From NCBI GenBank assembly GCA_015233135.1, contig JADFYH010000003.1, positions 43,021 through 107,020 on the forward strand: 64,000 nt of DNA, in the 5' to 3' direction. The stretch comes from Deltaproteobacteria bacterium. Its GTDB lineage: Bacteria; UBA10199; JADFYH01. Positions 3,857 to 55,945 of this stretch are shown here, one piece after another. A model generated the notes under the pieces. That model did no database searches. It was not told the origin of the DNA and worked only from the letters and a program-made list of their open reading frames with translations. Both the position numbers and the translations under genes were made by a program. Position 1 is the first letter of the stretch; the number at the start of each line of letters is the position of its first letter.

Positions 3857-4603
3857 ATGTTCAAAAAAATATTTCTAATTTCCGTTTTACTTTTTTTTAC
3901 CAACAATGTCTGTGCTCAAACTCCAGTGCAAACTTTTAAAACAGCCAATGAAGCTTATTTGGCCCGCGATTTTCAAAAGGCGGAAACGCTCTATCAGGAA
4001 CTTGAAAAGCAGGGGATTCTTTCGGGGGGCTTATTTTTTAATTTGGGAAACACCTTTTATCGCCAGGGAAAAGTGGGAGAAGCCATTTACTATTACGAAA
4101 AGGCTCTCCGGTTAAGTCCTCGGGATAGGGATTTATCGGCCAATTATAATTATATCCGCGAACGCCTGATTGATAAAATTGAAGAGCCACTCCTCAATAA
4201 AATTTTGTCCTATGCTTTTTTTTGGAATGCTTTGCTTTCTTTGAAAGAAGGCCTCTTTTTCACCCTAGGGGCTTACGCCTTGCTGTTTGCTTTGCTTATT
4301 TCGCGACTCTATTTTAAATCTCGCATGCAATTTTTGTGTCTGTTGTTTCTTGTTTTTGTGAACCTGTTGAGTCTTTCTTCTTTTTCCCTAAAGTTAATTG
4401 AAGAAAAACTACTTCGCTATGGGGTCTTGTTTGCTTCAAACCAAGGTGTTTTTTCAGAACCTACGGAACAATCGGTCCGCCTGTTCGAACTTCATGAAGG
4501 GGCAAAAATAAAAATTTCAGAAGAGCAAAATGGTTTTTATAAAGTGCAATGGGTGGATGGGAAAAAAGGTTGGATGAAAAAAGAGACGATTGGAAATATA
4601 TGA
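3857..4603 (+). CDS. batE: BatE-like protein: signal peptide, TPR repeats, TM segments, C-terminal SH3b-like domain.
   Basis: TPR motifs FNLGNTFYRQGKVGEAIYYYEKAL. The C-terminus FYKVQWVDGKKGWMKKETIG is a bacterial SH3-like signature. Third gene of the bat cluster. Confidence 0.5.
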   Translation: MFKKIFLISVLLFFTNNVCAQTPVQTFKTANEAYLARDFQKAETLYQELEKQGILSGGLFFNLGNTFYRQGKVGEAIYYYEKALRLSPRDRDLSANYNYIRERLIDKIEEPLLNKILSYAFFWNALLSLKEGLFFTLGAYALLFALLISRLYFKSRMQFLCLLFLVFVNLLSLSSFSLKLIEEKLLRYGVLFASNQGVFSEPTEQSVRLFELHEGAKIKISEEQNGFYKVQWVDGKKGWMKKETIGNI

Positions 4604-5145
4604 GACCTCAATTAAAACAAATCCTCCTTCAGAATTCTTATGAACAACGCGAAGTAAAACTTGCTTCGGGACGGCTTTCTAATTTTTATTTTGATGGAAA
4701 ACAAACTGCCCTTTCTGCAGAAGGTGCTTTTTTGATTGGAGAATGTTTTTTTGATCTCTTTCAAAAATCAGGTCGTCGGATTCAGGCCGTGGGGGGTCCT
4801 ACTTTAGGGGCGGATCCTATTGTGAGTGCGGTGAGTTTGATTTCTTATCTAAAAAATTCCCCGCTGCCCGCTTTTATTATTCGTAAAGAACCCAAGAAAC
4901 ACGGTACTGCAAAATGGATAGAAGGGGACAAAAATTTAAAGCTAGGGATGCAAGTGGCTTTAGTGGAAGACGTGGTGACCTCAGGTGGATCCATATTGAA
5001 AGCCGCTGAAAGAGTGGAAGAAGCCGGATATTTTGTGAGTTTAATGGCTACGATTGTCGATCGTGAAGAAGGAGGACGGGAGGCGATTGAAGCAAAAGGC
5101 TATCGCTTGTTGTCTTTGTTTACGAAGACGGAATTGCTTTCATAA
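4600..5145 (+). CDS. pyrE: Orotate phosphoribosyltransferase
   Basis: ORF 4549..5145. Start taken at the ATG at 4600, overlapping the batE stop as ATGA. PRPP-binding motif VALVEDVVTSGGS and typical PyrE length and sequence. Confidence 0.85.
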   Translation: MRPQLKQILLQNSYEQREVKLASGRLSNFYFDGKQTALSAEGAFLIGECFFDLFQKSGRRIQAVGGPTLGADPIVSAVSLISYLKNSPLPAFIIRKEPKKHGTAKWIEGDKNLKLGMQVALVEDVVTSGGSILKAAERVEEAGYFVSLMATIVDREEGGREAIEAKGYRLLSLFTKTELLS

Positions 5146-11343: not shown

Positions 11344-11447
11344 CCTCCCCTTAAGCTAAGGGGAGGTTAGGAGGGGTTATGATTCAATTGTATCCAATTG
11401 TTCGTAACGCCCCCTGACCCCCTCTTACCCTAAGAGGGGGAATTTGT
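11344..11447. repeat. Composite GC-rich palindromic repeat: two hairpin units, each followed by a (t)tatgattcaa(a)tt motif.
   Basis: Hairpin 1 is cctccccttaagctaaggggagg. Hairpin 2 is ccccctgaccccctcttaccctaagaggggg. The same two-hairpin unit recurs at 36693..36812. Confidence 0.7.
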
Positions 11448-15263: not shown

Positions 15264-15755
15264 AAAAGTGGGACTTGTTTAAATTTTAAAAGTGGACTGA
15301 AAACGAATTCCCCTCTCCCCTTGGGGGAGAGGGTAGGGTGAGGGGTAAAAATGAGTACTTTGATTGACCTTTCAAAATCTCTCAGGAAAAACTCAACTCA
15401 TACAGAAAATGATCTTTGGTATTATTTAAGATCAAGGCGATTAAATGGATTGAAATTTAGAAGACAGCATCCTCTTGGTCTATACATTGTAGATTTTATA
15501 TGTCTTGAGAAGCGCATTGTTATTGAATTGGACGGTGGGCAACATGCTGCAGCTCAAAGTGAAGGTAAGAAACGAGATGAATGGTTGAAAGCAGAAGGAT
15601 ACCAAGTATTACATTTTTGGAACTCTGAATTTTATGAAAATCGTGAAGGGGTGTTGAGTCAAATTTTAGCAGCAAGTGAATGAACCCCTCACCCTGCCCT
15701 CTCCCCCAGGGGGAGAGGGGATTATTAAAAGTCCACTTTTAAATTTAGGTAACAC
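15264..15755 (+). mobile_element. Compact cassette: a DUF559 endonuclease gene between inverted terminal repeats. The inner TIRs are GC-rich palindrome units of about 36 nt; the outer TIRs are AT-rich aaaagtggact segments.
   Basis: Left unit, 15310..15345, is cccctctccccttgggggagagggtagggtgagggg. Right unit, 15685..15720, is cccctcaccctgccctctcccccagggggagagggg, a near-perfect reverse complement. The outer segment taaattttaaaagtggact (15280..15298) is the reverse complement of aaaagtccacttttaaattta (15727..15747). Confidence 0.6.
15351..15683 (+). CDS. DUF559 domain protein (Vsr / PD-(D/E)xK-like endonuclease fold).
   Basis: Characteristic LWYYLRSRRLNGLKFRRQHPLGLYIVDFICLEKRIVIELDGGQH...VLHFWNSE. 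A degenerate second copy lies at 36883..37080. Confidence 0.8.
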   Translation: MSTLIDLSKSLRKNSTHTENDLWYYLRSRRLNGLKFRRQHPLGLYIVDFICLEKRIVIELDGGQHAAAQSEGKKRDEWLKAEGYQVLHFWNSEFYENREGVLSQILAASE

Positions 15756-27995: not shown

Positions 27996-28100
27996 ATTTC
28001 CCCTCTCCCCTTGAGGGAGAGGGTTAGGGTGAGGGGTATTTCTAGTGCACTCAGGATCACCCTCTCTCTGACTCTCTCCCCTCAAGGGAGAGAGGACTTT
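27996..28100. repeat. Two adjacent GC-rich palindromic repeat units between mreC and mreD.
   Basis: 28000..28035 is cccctctccccttgagggagagggttagggtgagggg. A degenerate unit at 28061..28097 reads ...tctcccctcaagggagagagg. Both fall within the 5' extension of ORF 28011, which is therefore probably not coding there. Confidence 0.7.
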
Positions 28101-35515: not shown

Positions 35516-36553
35516 ATGTTCAAAAAAAATAATCAGGTGAATGAAAAAAATAAGCTCTTCGAGGTACAACCCAAACAGATATTTGAGGTCTACTCTGGTT
35601 TTGCAGGCACTCAGGCCTTGCTTGCTGCCATTGAGCTAAATCTCTTTCAATTCATTGCCAATCAATTGAATACGGTAGAACGCATGGCCCCCGCCTTGAA
35701 TATTTCCGCGCGTTCCCTGCGTATTTTACTGGATGCCTTGGTGGCGCTTAAGATTTTAAACAAGGCAAAAAATGTCTATCAATTGAGTTCGGAGTCCAAA
35801 CAATATTTGGTAAAAGGTGGGGCTCTGTATATTGGGGATGTTTTACTTCGTTATGCCTTTAACTTCGAGAACTGGCACCCCTTGCTTGAGGCCTTGCGCA
35901 AAGGGCCCTCCTTGAACATGAAAAGCTGCGAGGAACGCATGAGGGGAATTCAGGATTCTTCCCGGGATATCTTTAGCACTTCTTATGCCTCGGCTGTTTT
36001 CATTAGCAAAAAACTAGGTGTGGGGAAAAGTTTAAAAAATTTAAAAGTGTTGGATATCGGTGCAGGTTCTGCTGCCTGGAGCCTGGCCTTTGTCTTGGCC
36101 GATGCTCAGAGTCAGGTAGATGCGCTCGATTTTGAAGGCATCTTGCCTCTAACCCGAGAGTTTGTGCAAAAATTTAGAGTGGAAAAGCAGTACAATTACC
36201 TGGCCGGAGATGTCTTGGAATATTCCTTAAAAAAAGAGCACTACGATGTTATTTTAATCGGACATCTTTGCCATCATTTGGGCGAGCAAGATTCAAAGAA
36301 GCTCTTCAAAAAATGTCACGAGGCCTTAAGACCCAAAGGCCGGGTGCTGATTGCCGAATATGTGGCCAACGACTTGAGAACCGGTGACAAGATTGCATTG
36401 CTGTTCGGTTTAAAGATGATTCTGCAAAGTACTCAGGGCGATGTATTTACGGTGAAGGAATTTAAAAAATGGCTGGCTGGCTGTAAATTTCGCAAGACCA
36501 GTGCCTTGTCGGCGGTATATCCGACCACGGTGATTTCAGCACAGAAGGGGTAA
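35516..36553 (+). CDS. Class I SAM-dependent O-methyltransferase (family 2, with an N-terminal dimerisation helix).
   Basis: Motif I is VLDIGAGSAAWS. Starts one nt after the cobA/hemD stop. Confidence 0.7.
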   Translation: MFKKNNQVNEKNKLFEVQPKQIFEVYSGFAGTQALLAAIELNLFQFIANQLNTVERMAPALNISARSLRILLDALVALKILNKAKNVYQLSSESKQYLVKGGALYIGDVLLRYAFNFENWHPLLEALRKGPSLNMKSCEERMRGIQDSSRDIFSTSYASAVFISKKLGVGKSLKNLKVLDIGAGSAAWSLAFVLADAQSQVDALDFEGILPLTREFVQKFRVEKQYNYLAGDVLEYSLKKEHYDVILIGHLCHHLGEQDSKKLFKKCHEALRPKGRVLIAEYVANDLRTGDKIALLFGLKMILQSTQGDVFTVKEFKKWLAGCKFRKTSALSAVYPTTVISAQKG

Positions 36554-36612
36554 AAAAATAAGGGGGGCTTCACGCTATCGAGTGGGTAAAATAATATACT
36601 TTAACTGCTCAT

Positions 36613-36637
36613 TCATTTATTCCCCTCTCCCCTTGAG
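36613..36637. repeat. Left half of a GC-rich palindromic repeat unit, split by the insertion of the MITE-like element.
   Basis: cccctctccccttgag. It continues at 36839..36867 as ccccttgagggagagggcagggtgagggg, leaving a 9-bp direct duplication ccccttgag on both sides of the insert. Confidence 0.6.
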
Positions 36638-36838
36638 CATAGGTATCTACACATCTCAGCAAACTATGGGTTTTATTGACTCTGCTGTTCCTCCCCTTAA
36701 GCTAAGGGGAGGTTAGGAGGGGTTATGGAAGATCTTGCTGAACTCAAAAATACTGTAATTTGCACGGTTTTCCATAACTCCCCCAACCCCCTCTTAGCTT
36801 AAGAGGGGGCAATACCAAAAGATGTGTAGATACCTATG
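36638..36838. mobile_element. MITE-like 201-bp non-coding element with perfect 19-bp terminal inverted repeats and a 9-bp target-site duplication, nested inside the terminal repeat of the decayed DUF559 cassette.
   Basis: Left TIR cataggtatctacacatct (36638..36656). Right TIR agatgtgtagatacctatg (36820..36838). Flanking ccccttgag at 36629..36637 and 36839..36847. The interior carries the two-hairpin unit also seen at 11344..11447. Confidence 0.6.
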
Positions 36839-36882
36839 CCCCTTGAGGGAGAGGGCAGGGTGAGGGGTTCATTCACTTGCTT

Positions 36883-37080
36883 CCAATATCTGACTCAACC
36901 TAGCTCAACCACAATGCGCTTTTCCAAACATACGAAATCCACAATATAAGCTCCAAGAATAGGTTGTCTTCTAAATTTCAACCCCTTTAAACGCCTGGAT
37001 CTCAAATAGTACCAAAGATCATTTCCTGTATTTGTACTTTCCTTTCTGAGTAGTTTTGAAATGCCAACAAGTACACCCAT
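36883..37080 (-). pseudogene. DUF559 endonuclease pseudogene: an internal deletion of about 100 nt removes the conserved core and creates a premature stop.
   Basis: Minus-strand ORF 36895..37080 encodes MGVLVGISKLLRKESTNTGNDLWYYLRSRRLKGLKFRRQPILGAYIVDFVCLEKRIVVELG*, about 80% identical to the first 61 aa of the 15351 protein. The downstream remnant ...gaagcaagtgaatga matches the 3' end of the intact copy. Confidence 0.7.
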
Positions 37081-37088
37081 TTATTTCT

Positions 37089-37125
37089 CCCCTCACCCAG
37101 ACCCTCTCCCCCAAGGGGAGAGGGG
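37089..37125. repeat. GC-rich palindromic repeat unit, here the upstream terminal repeat of the decayed DUF559 cassette.
   Basis: cccctcacccagaccctctcccccaaggggagagggg. Its reverse complement matches the left TIR of the intact cassette, including the spacing to the ATG. Confidence 0.7.
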
Positions 37126-37317
37126 AATCCTTTCTGCCTATTTCTAATTCTTGATTGTGATACAAGTTCTTCATCCTACTCAATCCTTTTCTTATCCGCT
37201 ACTCGTACATATTCCCTACCCTTAAATATCTCAAATTTACCCACTCAGTTTCGTGATGAGCCTCCTTTAATAAAATGCAGAAAAAATATTTTGTGCAAAC
37301 CTTGGGAGCTTTAAGTT

Positions 37318-38046
37318 TCACAACTCCTCAAAACTCCTACTCTGCATCCTTCTCAATAATATTGCCTTGCGCCTCTGGGCGCGTTTTTGTCTTTTGGGAT
37401 CGGACAAGTATTTGGGGTTTGGAATAATCGCAGCCAAATAAGCCGCTTCTTCGCTGTTCAAGTTTTCGGCATCTTTTTTAAAGTAAAAATGGCTTGCGGC
37501 CTGGGCTCCATAAATGCCTTTGCCCCACTCGATGACGTTGAGGTAAATTTCCAAAATTCTTTTTTTCTCCAAAACTTTTTCCATCCAAAGGGCCAAAATG
37601 ATTTCTTTGATTTTTCGGAGAGGATTTTTAGAGGCATCCAGATATAGATTTTTCACTAATTGTTGCGTAATGGTGGAGCCCCCGCGGACAATTCTTTTCT
37701 TTTTTAGATTGGCCTCCCAGGCGGATTCCAAGGCATCGGTGTCGATGCCATCGTGTTCAAAAAAAGTGTCATCTTCTCCAATGAGCACGGCTTCTTGAAG
37801 ATGTTTTGAAATTTTATCCAGATTCACCCATTCTTGCTCAAAAAAACAGGGATGCTCACATCCCTTAAGATAGGTTTGAATAAATTTTGTGCTTTGAGGA
37901 TTCTTTACCGTGAGGAGAAAAATTTCATGGGCGGGGAGCAAAATTTGAAGCAAAAAAACGAGTAACAGGATTGACAAAACAGGGATAAACGCCCTTCTGA
38001 GGAAGGACGACTTTTTTTTGTAGGGTTTGAGAGGAGATCGTTGCAT
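37318..38046 (-). CDS. mtgA: Monofunctional biosynthetic peptidoglycan transglycosylase
   Basis: GT51 motifs EDDTFFEHDGID and RGGSTITQQLVKN. N-terminal TM anchor. 242 aa. Confidence 0.85.
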   Translation of the reverse strand: MQRSPLKPYKKKSSFLRRAFIPVLSILLLVFLLQILLPAHEIFLLTVKNPQSTKFIQTYLKGCEHPCFFEQEWVNLDKISKHLQEAVLIGEDDTFFEHDGIDTDALESAWEANLKKKRIVRGGSTITQQLVKNLYLDASKNPLRKIKEIILALWMEKVLEKKRILEIYLNVIEWGKGIYGAQAASHFYFKKDAENLNSEEAAYLAAIIPNPKYLSDPKRQKRAQRRKAILLRRMQSRSFEEL

Positions 38047-54133: not shown

Positions 54134-55945
54134 ATGTCTTCCAAAATTATACAGCTCCCTCCCGAGATAGCCGAAAAAATTGCGGCGGGCGAAGTGGTCG
54201 AGCGGCCTTTGTCAGTCGTCAAAGAACTGGTCGAAAATAGTGTAGACGCCGGGGCCACGCGAATTGAGGTTTTTCTGGAAGAGGGGGGGAAGAAGCTCAT
54301 CCGGGTTCAGGACGATGGCATGGGTATGAATCCCAGCGAAATGCGGCTGGCCTTGCAAAGGCATGCAACCTCCAAAGTAAAAAGTCTTGAAGATCTTTTT
54401 GCTATTTCTACCCTGGGTTTTCGGGGAGAGGCCCTGCCTTCCCTGGCGGCCATCTCAAAATTCTGCTTACAAAGCCGCTCTCGAGAAGAAAACTCTTTTG
54501 CCTACGAGCTTTATCTGGAAGGGGGTAAATCGATTCACGAACGCGAAGTGGGGCATCCTTTTGGGACCACGATAGAAATCAGCGAACTTTTTTATAACAC
54601 CCCGGCACGACTGAAATTTCTCAAATCGAGTGAAACAGAATGGAACCATATCGAAGAATTCATCACCGCGATGGCCTTGGCTCATCCCGAAGTGCAATGG
54701 GTGGTACGTCATCAGGATAAAGAAAAAATTCGATATGTTCAAAAAGGGCTGCAAGATCGAATGCTCGAGGTGTGGGGGAAAGAGGTTTTTAGCGGATTTT
54801 ATCCCTTGTTGCAGGAACAGGGCGATTACAGTCTGCAAGGCTACATTGCGCATCCCAATCTTTCCAAATCACAGGCGCGCGGCCTGTATGTGTTTGTGAA
54901 TGGGCGTTGGGTAAAAGACCGTTTACTGAATCATGCGGTATCGACCGGCTATCGCAATTTACTGATGCAACATCAGTATCCGCTGGTGGTTTTATTTCTG
55001 AATCTGCCTGCTTCCGAGGTGGATGTGAATGTGCATCCTACCAAACGCGAAGTGCGTTTTGTGAAGACGCAGTTTGTGCACCATTTTATTTCGGAGGCAA
55101 TTCACGCGGAGTTGGTGAAGGCGCCGTGGGTGGAGAAGCAGTTGCCAGTAGATTCCTTTATCCCCCCTGAATCCCCCCTTAATAAGGGGGGGTGGGGGGG
55201 TGTTTCCAATTGGAAAAAAGAAAATTTCGATTCTCTTTCTTCCCAACGAAAAGCACAAAGTGAACTCGAGTGTTTGACCCCTCACCCTAACCCTCTCCCC
55301 CAAGGGGAGAGGGGACTGGGACGGGGAGTGGGGGAGCAAGTAGCAAAAGCCGGCGTGCTCCCCTTCGCCTCGCTCAAAATCATCGGCCAACTCAAGCTCA
55401 CCTACATTTTATGCGAGTCCGAACATCATCTCGTCCTCATTGATCAACACGCCGCCCACGAGCGTTTGGGGTATGAACAGATCAAAAAATCTTACGAAAA
55501 ACGAGAGCTCAAAAGCCAGAATCTTCTGGTGCCCGAACAGCTAAACCTGAAAGAATCTGAGCTGGAGCTGATTCGCCCTTATCAGGAAAAATTTGAAGAG
55601 CTGGGTTTGAGGGTTGAAGAATTTGGTAGAGATTGCCTGCTCGTGAAGGCCGTGCCAGAAATTTTGGGAAAGCTGGAGGTTAAAAAGTTGATTGAAAATA
55701 TTTTGGAAGATCTGAAAAATTTTCCTCAAAGTCGAAGGCTGGAAGAAAAGCTGGATCATCTCTTTGCAACCATGGCCTGTCACCGGCAGGTGCGGGCAGG
55801 GGATAAGCTGGCGAGGGAAGAAATGCAGGCCCTGATTTCTCAACTCGATGCCGAAGCGGTGCTCTATCACTGTCCCCACGGGCGTCCGCTGATGGTGCAG
55901 GTGTCTTATGCGGAGATTGAGAAGTGGTTTAAGAGGGTGCTGTAA
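54134..55945 (+). CDS. mutL: DNA mismatch repair protein MutL, with two palindromic-repeat insertions in-frame in the inter-domain linker.
   Basis: N-terminal GHKL ATPase: AIKELVENSVDAGAT-like VKELVENSVDAGATRIEV and DDGMGM. C-terminal dimerisation domain: IIGQLKLTYILCESEHHLVLIDQHAAHERL. The linker (around 55162..55340) encodes PPESPLNKGGWGG and PHPNPLPQGERGLGRGVG from the repeats. Confidence 0.9.
   Translation: MSSKIIQLPPEIAEKIAAGEVVERPLSVVKELVENSVDAGATRIEVFLEEGGKKLIRVQDDGMGMNPSEMRLALQRHATSKVKSLEDLFAISTLGFRGEALPSLAAISKFCLQSRSREENSFAYELYLEGGKSIHEREVGHPFGTTIEISELFYNTPARLKFLKSSETEWNHIEEFITAMALAHPEVQWVVRHQDKEKIRYVQKGLQDRMLEVWGKEVFSGFYPLLQEQGDYSLQGYIAHPNLSKSQARGLYVFVNGRWVKDRLLNHAVSTGYRNLLMQHQYPLVVLFLNLPASEVDVNVHPTKREVRFVKTQFVHHFISEAIHAELVKAPWVEKQLPVDSFIPPESPLNKGGWGGVSNWKKENFDSLSSQRKAQSELECLTPHPNPLPQGERGLGRGVGEQVAKAGVLPFASLKIIGQLKLTYILCESEHHLVLIDQHAAHERLGYEQIKKSYEKRELKSQNLLVPEQLNLKESELELIRPYQEKFEELGLRVEEFGRDCLLVKAVPEILGKLEVKKLIENILEDLKNFPQSRRLEEKLDHLFATMACHRQVRAGDKLAREEMQALISQLDAEAVLYHCPHGRPLMVQVSYAEIEKWFKRVL
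55162..55205. repeat. cccccTGA...cccccttaataaggggg-type palindromic repeat inside the mutL coding sequence.
   Basis: tcccccctgaatccccccttaataagggggggtggggggg. A sister copy lies at 55946..55990, just after the mutL stop. Confidence 0.65.
55278..55314. repeat. GC-rich palindromic repeat unit (the same family as the DUF559 cassette TIR) inside the mutL coding sequence.
   Basis: cccctcaccctaaccctctcccccaaggggagagggg, translated in frame as TPHPNPLPQGERG. Confidence 0.7.

Follow-up and report, generated by a model that had tools for sequence, protein, structure and literature searches.

We describe a probable case of nested transposition in a 64,000-nucleotide stretch of a Deltaproteobacteria metagenome-assembled genome (MAG; assembly GCA_015233135.1, contig JADFYH010000003.1, positions 43,021 to 107,020), hereafter called the window. 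A 201-bp element with perfect 19-bp terminal inverted repeats (TIRs) interrupts the downstream terminal repeat of a decayed cassette carrying a gene of the DUF559 family. Our reading, to which we assign a probability of roughly 85%, is that the element is a non-autonomous derivative of a Tn5/IS50-like insertion sequence (IS) of the IS4 family, and that it was inserted by transposition into a preferred target, the hairpin apex of the DUF559 cassette. The insertion was first noticed in a prediction made from the letters of the window, and its coordinates and sequences were borne out base for base, save for the size of one deletion.

Anatomy of the nested insertion

The features of the locus, in window coordinates, are as follows.

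36554 to 37317, no strand: intergenic block of 764 bp from the methyltransferase stop to the mtgA stop, absent from two relatives
36570 to 36590 and 37236 to 37256: outer imperfect inverted repeat around the cassette, 21 nt, 81% complementary
36619 to 36637, minus strand: split downstream terminal repeat, outer half, ATTCCCCTCTCCCCTTGAG, including the first CCCCTTGAG; 36619 to 36635 are 100% complementary to 37112 to 37128
36638 to 36838, no strand: putative MITE (miniature transposable element with inverted repeats), 201 bp, TIRs 19/19 complementary, without a transposase open reading frame (ORF)
36638 to 36656: left TIR, CATAGGTATCTACACATCT
36690 to 36809, no strand: two-hairpin doublet in the interior of the MITE, with CCTCCCCTTAAGCTAAGGGGAGGTTAGGAGGGGTTATG as its left and CATAACTCCCCCAACCCCCTCTTAGCTTAAGAGGGGG as its right unit
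36820 to 36838: right TIR, the exact reverse complement of the left TIR
36839 to 36867, minus strand: inner half of the split terminal repeat, with the second CCCCTTGAG (36839 to 36847), the right arm of the hairpin and a G-box, GGGTGAGGGG (36858 to 36867)
36895 to 37080, minus strand: truncated DUF559 ORF, 61 aa, matching positions 7-59 of the 109 in the Pfam DUF559 profile (E 6.9e-19)
37089 to 37128, minus strand: intact upstream terminal repeat, with G-box (37089 to 37098), hairpin (37102 to 37124) and ATT end

Read across positions 36300 to 37500, the plus strand runs ...ATTCCCCTCTCCCCTTGAG / CATAGGTATCTACACATCT ... AGATGTGTAGATACCTATG / CCCCTTGAGGGAGAGGGCAGGGTGAGGGG. The two TIRs are the only matches to the 19-mer in the window with up to three mismatches allowed, the chance expectation being 0.01. 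Both ends of the element are abutted by the 9-bp direct repeat CCCCTTGAG (36629 to 36637 and 36839 to 36847, 9/9 identical). When the 201-bp element and one copy of the 9-mer are removed, the two halves of the terminal repeat (the left one being cccctctccccttgag, 36622 to 36637) rejoin as CCCCTCTCCCCTTGAGGGAGAGGGCAGGGTGAGGGG. This rejoined target reads CCCCTCTCCCCTTGAGGGAGAGGG-CA-GGGTGAGGGG, and as predicted it forms one unit matching the uninterrupted copy at 27997 to 28036, which reads CCCCTCTCCCCTTGAGGGAGAGGG-TTA-GGGTGAGGGG. The prediction had itself raised the possibility that the 9-bp repeat belongs to the consensus of the host repeat. This does not hold: intact units, the one at 27997 to 28036 included, carry CCCCTTGAG once, and the 9-bp repeat is therefore a target duplication.

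The longest ORFs over the element are junction ORFs of 37 to 44 aa. Small size, TIRs, a target duplication and the lack of a transposase ORF are the marks of a MITE, and a further one, TIRs shared with an autonomous IS, is also present, as the same 19-mer ends 1.37-kb transposase elements in other genomes. The element is classified here as a predicted MITE of a Tn5-like IS lineage. It resembles other bacterial MITEs in its length, TIRs, target duplication and lack of a transposase, and in sharing its exact ends with an autonomous IS; it differs from them in that its interior is an independent hairpin-repeat doublet and not a remnant of IS deletion.

This interior doublet, whose units we call family B, shares the two-hairpin unit found between pnp and dut, as had been proposed: the left unit is the same in 40/40 bases as the pnp-dut intergenic doublet (11344 to 11445), and the right unit is similar. 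A scan of metagenomes for the family-B unit returned three contigs with free-standing doublets that have no TIRs, and no sibling MITEs. Family B is therefore an independent repeat family. Its layout (hairpin, G-rich box, then ATG) is like that of the DUF559 termini. Either the MITE formed around a family-B doublet, or the doublet invaded the MITE. A comparison of the window with Rfam gave nothing at gathering score; sub-threshold, microRNA-like matches fell on the long doublet hairpin only.

The host of the insertion is a minus-strand DUF559 cassette, the second in the window. An intact cassette at 15306 to 15723 encodes a 110-aa DUF559 protein (15351 to 15683) that scores 135 bits against the Pfam profile (PF04480, positions 5-107 of 109); the 61-aa ORF of the decayed copy scores 68.2 bits over positions 7-59, the gathering cut-off being 20.6. 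Its upstream terminal repeat is almost the same as that of the intact copy. An alignment of the two cassettes shows one internal deletion in the decayed gene, with its junction at about 36899/36900 and GTTGAG microhomology at its flanks. The deletion was correctly predicted to remove the core of the protein, but it measures 121 nt and not about 100 nt; it takes DGGQH together with the ~35 residues after it and leaves the last ~10 codons. What is left lacks a complete DUF559 catalytic core and is a pseudogene.

Over codons 1-60 the two window copies have 73% DNA identity, a synonymous divergence (dS) of ~1.2 and a ratio of nonsynonymous to synonymous divergence (dN/dS) of 0.16. They are therefore old paralogues shaped by purifying selection, and the 121-nt deletion came late in the history of the gene. 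The terminal repeats of the two cassettes are ~95-100% identical (15306 to 15350 and 15684 to 15723, against 37081 to 37128, 36619 to 36637 and 36848 to 36895). Near-identical repeats surround genes at synonymous saturation, and the repeats are therefore homogenised or strongly constrained in this genome.

The genes flanking the 764-bp block are convergent, with the methyltransferase at 35516 to 36553. Two relatives have the same gene order (L121, Logan ERR14098938; L122, GCA_020049755.1), with methyltransferases of 81-82% protein identity to that of the window, and in both the stop codons of the methyltransferase and mtgA overlap or lie 3 nt apart. The block was therefore gained in the lineage of the window (or lost in the others). 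The search for an empty site in related strains, suggested with the original prediction, thus yields one for the cassette as a whole and none for the MITE alone at such a distance. The outer parts of the block are unique among the window and the fetched loci, and no further element could be defined there.

The IS lineage behind the terminal inverted repeats

An exact scan for the 19-mer in 185,579 species-representative genomes found it in at least 120 loci (L001 to L120); the figures given below for the lineage are among the matches listed. Its hosts include Pseudomonas, Acinetobacter, Symbiopectobacterium, Photorhabdus, Xenorhabdus, several Betaproteobacteria and Acidiferrobacterales, and further Gallionella, Thiolinea, Planctomycetota (Schlesneria, Fuerstiella), Candidatus Finniella, Hyphomicrobiales, Mariprofundaceae and Alphaproteobacteria. 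Paired 19-mer ends fall into two size classes, one of 1349-1373 bp and one, with many members, of 70-280 bp. The long class has a single ORF of 401-442 aa and supplies the autonomous relative that had been sought, a 1.37-kb element with a Tn5-like transposase; one copy encoding it lies in Acinetobacter at L083 (5301 to 6629). The miniature forms have unrelated interiors, and most of them are flanked by 9-bp duplications. Perfect duplications border 31 distinct complete elements, being 9 bp long in 24 and 10 bp in 7, the latter mainly in Pseudomonas. Contig ends coincide with many of the 19-mer matches, which makes this IS a common source of breaks in assemblies.

The ORF of the long class matches Pfam DDE_Tnp_1 (E 7.5e-9) and, weakly, the Tn5 N-terminal DNA-binding domain. 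A single transposase sequence found no match in the PDB, where a profile was needed: one built from six diverse transposases matched the Tn5 transposase (E ~1e-11), with both aspartates, the glutamate and the Y-x2-R-x3-E-x6-K motif aligned. Full-length elements sharing the TIR have the IS4 signature as an invariant YYWRWxIExxxKLxK motif, and the window element, with its 19-bp TIRs and 9-bp duplication, fits the short TIRs and 9-12-bp target duplications of IS4 elements. Against the NCBIfam IS4 models the best match (transpos_IS4_3) reaches 87.6 bits, below the cut-off of 160. Judged by these protein comparisons, the lineage is a distant, separately evolving branch of the IS4 family. Plasmid records in the databases name its transposase just 'transposase' or 'IS4 family transposase' and supply no ISfinder name, and a literature search for the 19-mer found it in no paper.

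From Pseudomonadota to Planctomycetota one and the same 19-bp end is kept, although the transposases are only 34-55% identical. Tn5 likewise ends in 19-bp sequences and duplicates 9 bp of its target. In the TIR the inner 9 bases, TACACATCT, are those of the Tn5 mosaic end; the outer 10 bases differ. Contamination by Nextera/Tn5 adaptors was considered and rejected, since agreement with the mosaic end stops at 9 bases, and integration has left duplications beside the elements, which have transposase genes of their own. Full-length relatives thus resemble Tn5/IS50 (IS4 family) in a DDE transposase with Y-x2-R-x3-E-x6-K. They differ in transposases too distant for a single-sequence match and below the NCBIfam IS4 cut-offs, and in a target preference that is much stronger and aimed at hairpin repeats; the window, moreover, holds just the 201-bp derivative without a transposase.

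Insertion into the apex of hairpin repeats

The hairpin at the insertion reads CCCTCTCCC-CTTGA-GGGAGAGGG. Similar targets recur throughout the lineage. When empty sites were reconstructed, 32% were at least 80% palindromic, compared with 0.15% of random sites from the same loci. Among 116 distinct flanks adjoining exact TIRs, the adjacent 9-mer had at least 3/4 complementary pairs in 40%, compared with 5.5% of controls; C stands at positions -9/-8 in 60-70% of these flanks and G at -2/-1 in 70-81%. The duplicated 9-mer has the consensus CCYNNNRGG and follows a pyrimidine stem of the CCCTCTCC type. Four reconstructed sites, with the duplication in capitals, serve as examples.

tctCCCTTGGGGaga
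tccCCTTCAGGGgga
ccttctCCCGGCGGGagaagg
ccctctCCTTTTAGGagaggg

These are insertions in the apex of C-rich/G-rich hairpins, and many such hairpins are followed by a GGGTGAGGG-type box, as in the window; hairpin-plus-G-box targets of the window type occur, for example, at L043, L046, L073, L089, L097 and L113. Copies in Pseudomonas are placed in repetitive extragenic palindrome (REP) elements (GCTGGCTTGCCTGCGATAGC). In Acinetobacter (L018) an IS end lies inside a hairpin ~50 bp from a DUF559 remnant. The closest parallel to the window comes from a Gallionella MAG (L055), where a 205-bp MITE, with the 9-bp duplication CCTTGAAGG, occupies the loop of the 3' hairpin that ends an intact DUF559 cassette. 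These comparisons support the view that the lineage prefers the apex of C-rich/G-rich hairpin repeats and that the insertion in the window is a targeted event of a known kind. The enrichment in hairpins and the replicate in L055 together indicate that the nesting in the window is target-driven, as expected from the target preference, and not passive.

The interior of the L055 MITE (4438 to 4642) holds an inverted pair of a different palindromic repeat, of the GTAGGTGCGCAATTTATTGCGCG type. Doublets of local palindromic repeats thus recur inside the MITEs of this lineage. At another locus (L063, 5798 to 6375), a complete DUF559 cassette is enclosed in a 578-bp element that has these TIRs and a perfect duplication of 9 bp, CCTTCAGGG; the right end of the element is tandemly duplicated. 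Therefore either DUF559 cassettes can travel as cargo of the IS lineage, or they invade its MITEs.

Insertion concentrated at the axis of extragenic palindromic repeats, the hallmark of REP-targeting IS, is thus found in this lineage. REP-targeting IS are established in the IS3, IS110, IS5, IS256 and IS4 families, the IS4 example being ISRm22 (PMC1525189); examples are IS1397/ISKpn1, ISPpu9/ISPpu10, ISPsy8 and ISRm22 (Tobes and Pareja 2006, PMC1525189). According to work cited in that paper, Tn5 has a preference for palindromic sites in which the duplicated stretch has G/C at its ends. In common with REP-targeting IS, the present lineage inserts at or near the symmetry axis of extragenic palindromes, splits the repeat and leaves a short duplication. 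It is a different lineage, however, and its duplication is of 9 bp as against 2-6 bp. Its targets are CCCTCTCC/GGAGAGGG hairpins tied to DUF559 genes in addition to Pseudomonas REPs, it extends over several phyla with an invariant 19-bp end, and its abundant miniatures themselves carry hairpin doublets. The targeting of REP-type hairpins by IS is already known, one IS4-family case included, and the DUF559 cassette is the more novel lead.

DUF559 cassettes and their terminal repeats

The window contains one intact DUF559 cassette, the decayed one, two gene-less doublets and single units of the same terminal repeat, which we call family A. Those outside the two cassettes are listed here.

27997 to 28098: gene-less inverted family-A doublet
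48500 to 48541: single family-A unit
55275 to 55314: single family-A unit, C-box plus hairpin, in frame within mutL (54134 to 55945)
59729 to 59830: gene-less inverted family-A doublet keeping a few bases of the 3' end of a DUF559 gene

The DUF559 bases kept at 59729 to 59830 make doublets look like deletion derivatives of cassettes. The unit in mutL sits in the linker between the N-terminal and C-terminal domains of MutL and is translated as ...TPHPNPLPQGERGLGRG...; it recalls the Rickettsia palindromic elements within coding genes. Two neighbouring ORFs extend into family-A units, one TatA-like (48493 to 48831) and one encoding a subtilase (59804 to 61480). Each family-A cassette or doublet is enclosed by an outer inverted repeat of its own (15288 to 15298/15730 to 15740; 27930 to 27952/28122 to 28144; 36570 to 36590/37236 to 37256). 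The outer repeat of the intact cassette resembles a bidirectional terminator hairpin with the cassette in its loop, and cassettes, too, may enter hairpin loops. The ends of the DUF559 cassettes showed no target duplication.

A cassette is laid out as hairpin, G-box, ATG ... stop, C-box, hairpin. This layout was found in Gallionella (L055), Acinetobacter, the MAG of the window and locus L063, and homologues picked regardless of any IS share it: Poribacteria (L126), Nitrospinota (L130) and Uhrbacteria (L128, with the upstream unit only and none after the stop). Among 24 homologues called longer than the domain, 22 translate the repeats, as an N-terminal GEGxGEG and a C-terminal PHPxPLPxGERE; these 24 were chosen for being long, and the fraction is therefore biased upward. 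Searchable literature gave no description of the flanking hairpin/G-box architecture of DUF559 genes, and the 25 papers mentioning DUF559 all lack it in title and abstract. DUF559 genes have been reported as enriched among genes with flanking inverted repeats (PMC9881135), and a homing endonuclease of a group I intron belongs to the Vsr/DUF559 clan (PMC3424549).

The cassette invites comparison with the REPIN-RAYT system (Bertels and Rainey 2011, PMC3116915; Nunvar 2010, PMC2817692). Both have a small nuclease-type gene between inverted hairpin repeats, many gene-less inverted doublets scattered in the genome, and repeats that are near-identical while the genes diverge. The DUF559 gene is a Vsr-like PD-(D/E)XK endonuclease, however, and not a tyrosine transposase of the IS200/IS605 type; its repeats are polypyrimidine/polypurine hairpins with a G-box and not GTAG-type REPs; and mobility of the cassette is only presumed. 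By analogy, a REPIN/RAYT-like role for the DUF559 cassette may be suggested, its correlates being the conserved architecture, the gene-less doublets, the homogenised repeats and the absence of the block from relatives.

Proposed mechanism and alternative explanations

In the explanation that we favour, the 19-bp ends are those recognised by a DDE transposase of this lineage, and the 9-bp target duplication is the mark of such a transposition. The element would presumably have been excised and inserted into double-stranded DNA through joins staggered by 9 bp. Its target would be the downstream terminal repeat of the DUF559 cassette, at the apex of the C-rich/G-rich hairpin formed there. The site would be no arbitrary one, the likely reason being a dimeric transposase that reads a symmetric target or bends it; Tn5 does the same, but more weakly. 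As for the host cassette, it had long diverged from its intact paralogue under purifying selection, and then lost 121 nt of its catalytic core between short GTTGAG repeats. The original claim of recent transposition of a non-autonomous element stands as regards transposition with a 9-bp duplication; the case for 'recent' consists only of the perfect TIRs and the duplication.

Several points weigh against this explanation. In a fixed-centre test the window site has 6/10 palindromic pairs, and the duplication is 1 nt off the hairpin axis. The 64-kb window holds a single copy of the element and no transposase gene. The left subterminal sequence of the MITE, ATCTACACATCTCAGCAAACT, gave 0 matches in a scan of the metagenome collection. 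Similarity to full-length IS is limited to ~22-26 bp per end, so descent by internal deletion is deduced from the ends alone. Lastly, recognition of the hairpin, whether through the symmetry of its sequence or through an extruded structure, is a step that we infer.

A wider scheme would place the insertion within two interacting selfish layers: the DUF559 cassette as a widespread, undescribed REPIN/RAYT-like system, and the IS lineage as a specialised parasite of its hairpins across phyla. The hairpin repeats at its flanks would be what the Vsr-like PD-(D/E)XK endonuclease acts on, and this would explain the near-identical repeats around saturated genes, the scattered gene-less doublets and the in-frame copy in mutL; miniatures carrying hairpin doublets or whole DUF559 cassettes (L063) would thereby spread their own target sites. 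We put this forward tentatively, as a possibility that is doubtful for now.

Decay on the spot is distinctly unlikely as the origin of the element. Under this account a full-length 1.37-kb IS inserted at the locus and lost its interior there, perhaps with the family-B doublet inserting or replacing it, and never moved as a MITE. The single copy in the window, the interior unrelated to the sampled IS beyond the 22-26 bp at its ends and the unmatched left subterminal sequence would all fit, as would the independent occurrence of the family-B doublet elsewhere. In other genomes, however, miniatures with the same TIRs, unrelated interiors and perfect duplications of their own are common, so the mobilisation of short forms is routine for the lineage. 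Both TIRs in the window are also still free of mismatches; in many full-length copies one end carries 1-2 of them.

The original prediction called the locus a mobile-element graveyard. If this means passive accumulation, with the element at an essentially random site and the nesting a matter of tolerance in a non-essential, repeat-filled intergenic region, it agrees with the convergent genes, with a 764-bp block that is dispensable (being absent in relatives) and with a DUF559 gene that was already broken. It does not agree with more than 100 independent insertions that hit a similar hairpin apex far above random expectation, nor with the intact, independent Gallionella cassette struck at the same place, and we regard it as very improbable. 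That chance repeats or recombination among hairpin repeats produced the structure, with no transposition, finds a foothold in the many short repeats of a region dense in C-rich/G-rich palindromes, but it can be practically dismissed given that the 19-mer is unrelated to the hairpin repeats, that 0.01 chance matches are expected in the window, that the 19-mer is the exact end of transposase-encoding elements elsewhere and that a canonical unit reappears once the element and one duplicate are taken out.

Conclusions

The locus is a clean textbook case of nested transposition. The IS lineage behind it is useful for understanding how Tn5-type transposases choose their targets, its ends being identical while its transposases diverge to 34% identity, and its homing to hairpins explains contig breaks at such repeats. 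The DUF559 cassette is a conserved, apparently undescribed architecture around a very common small endonuclease gene of bacteria that is annotated as 'unknown'. If it is true that DUF559 services its own flanking repeats, the cassette would be a second REPIN-type system, beside REPIN-RAYT and with a different enzyme.

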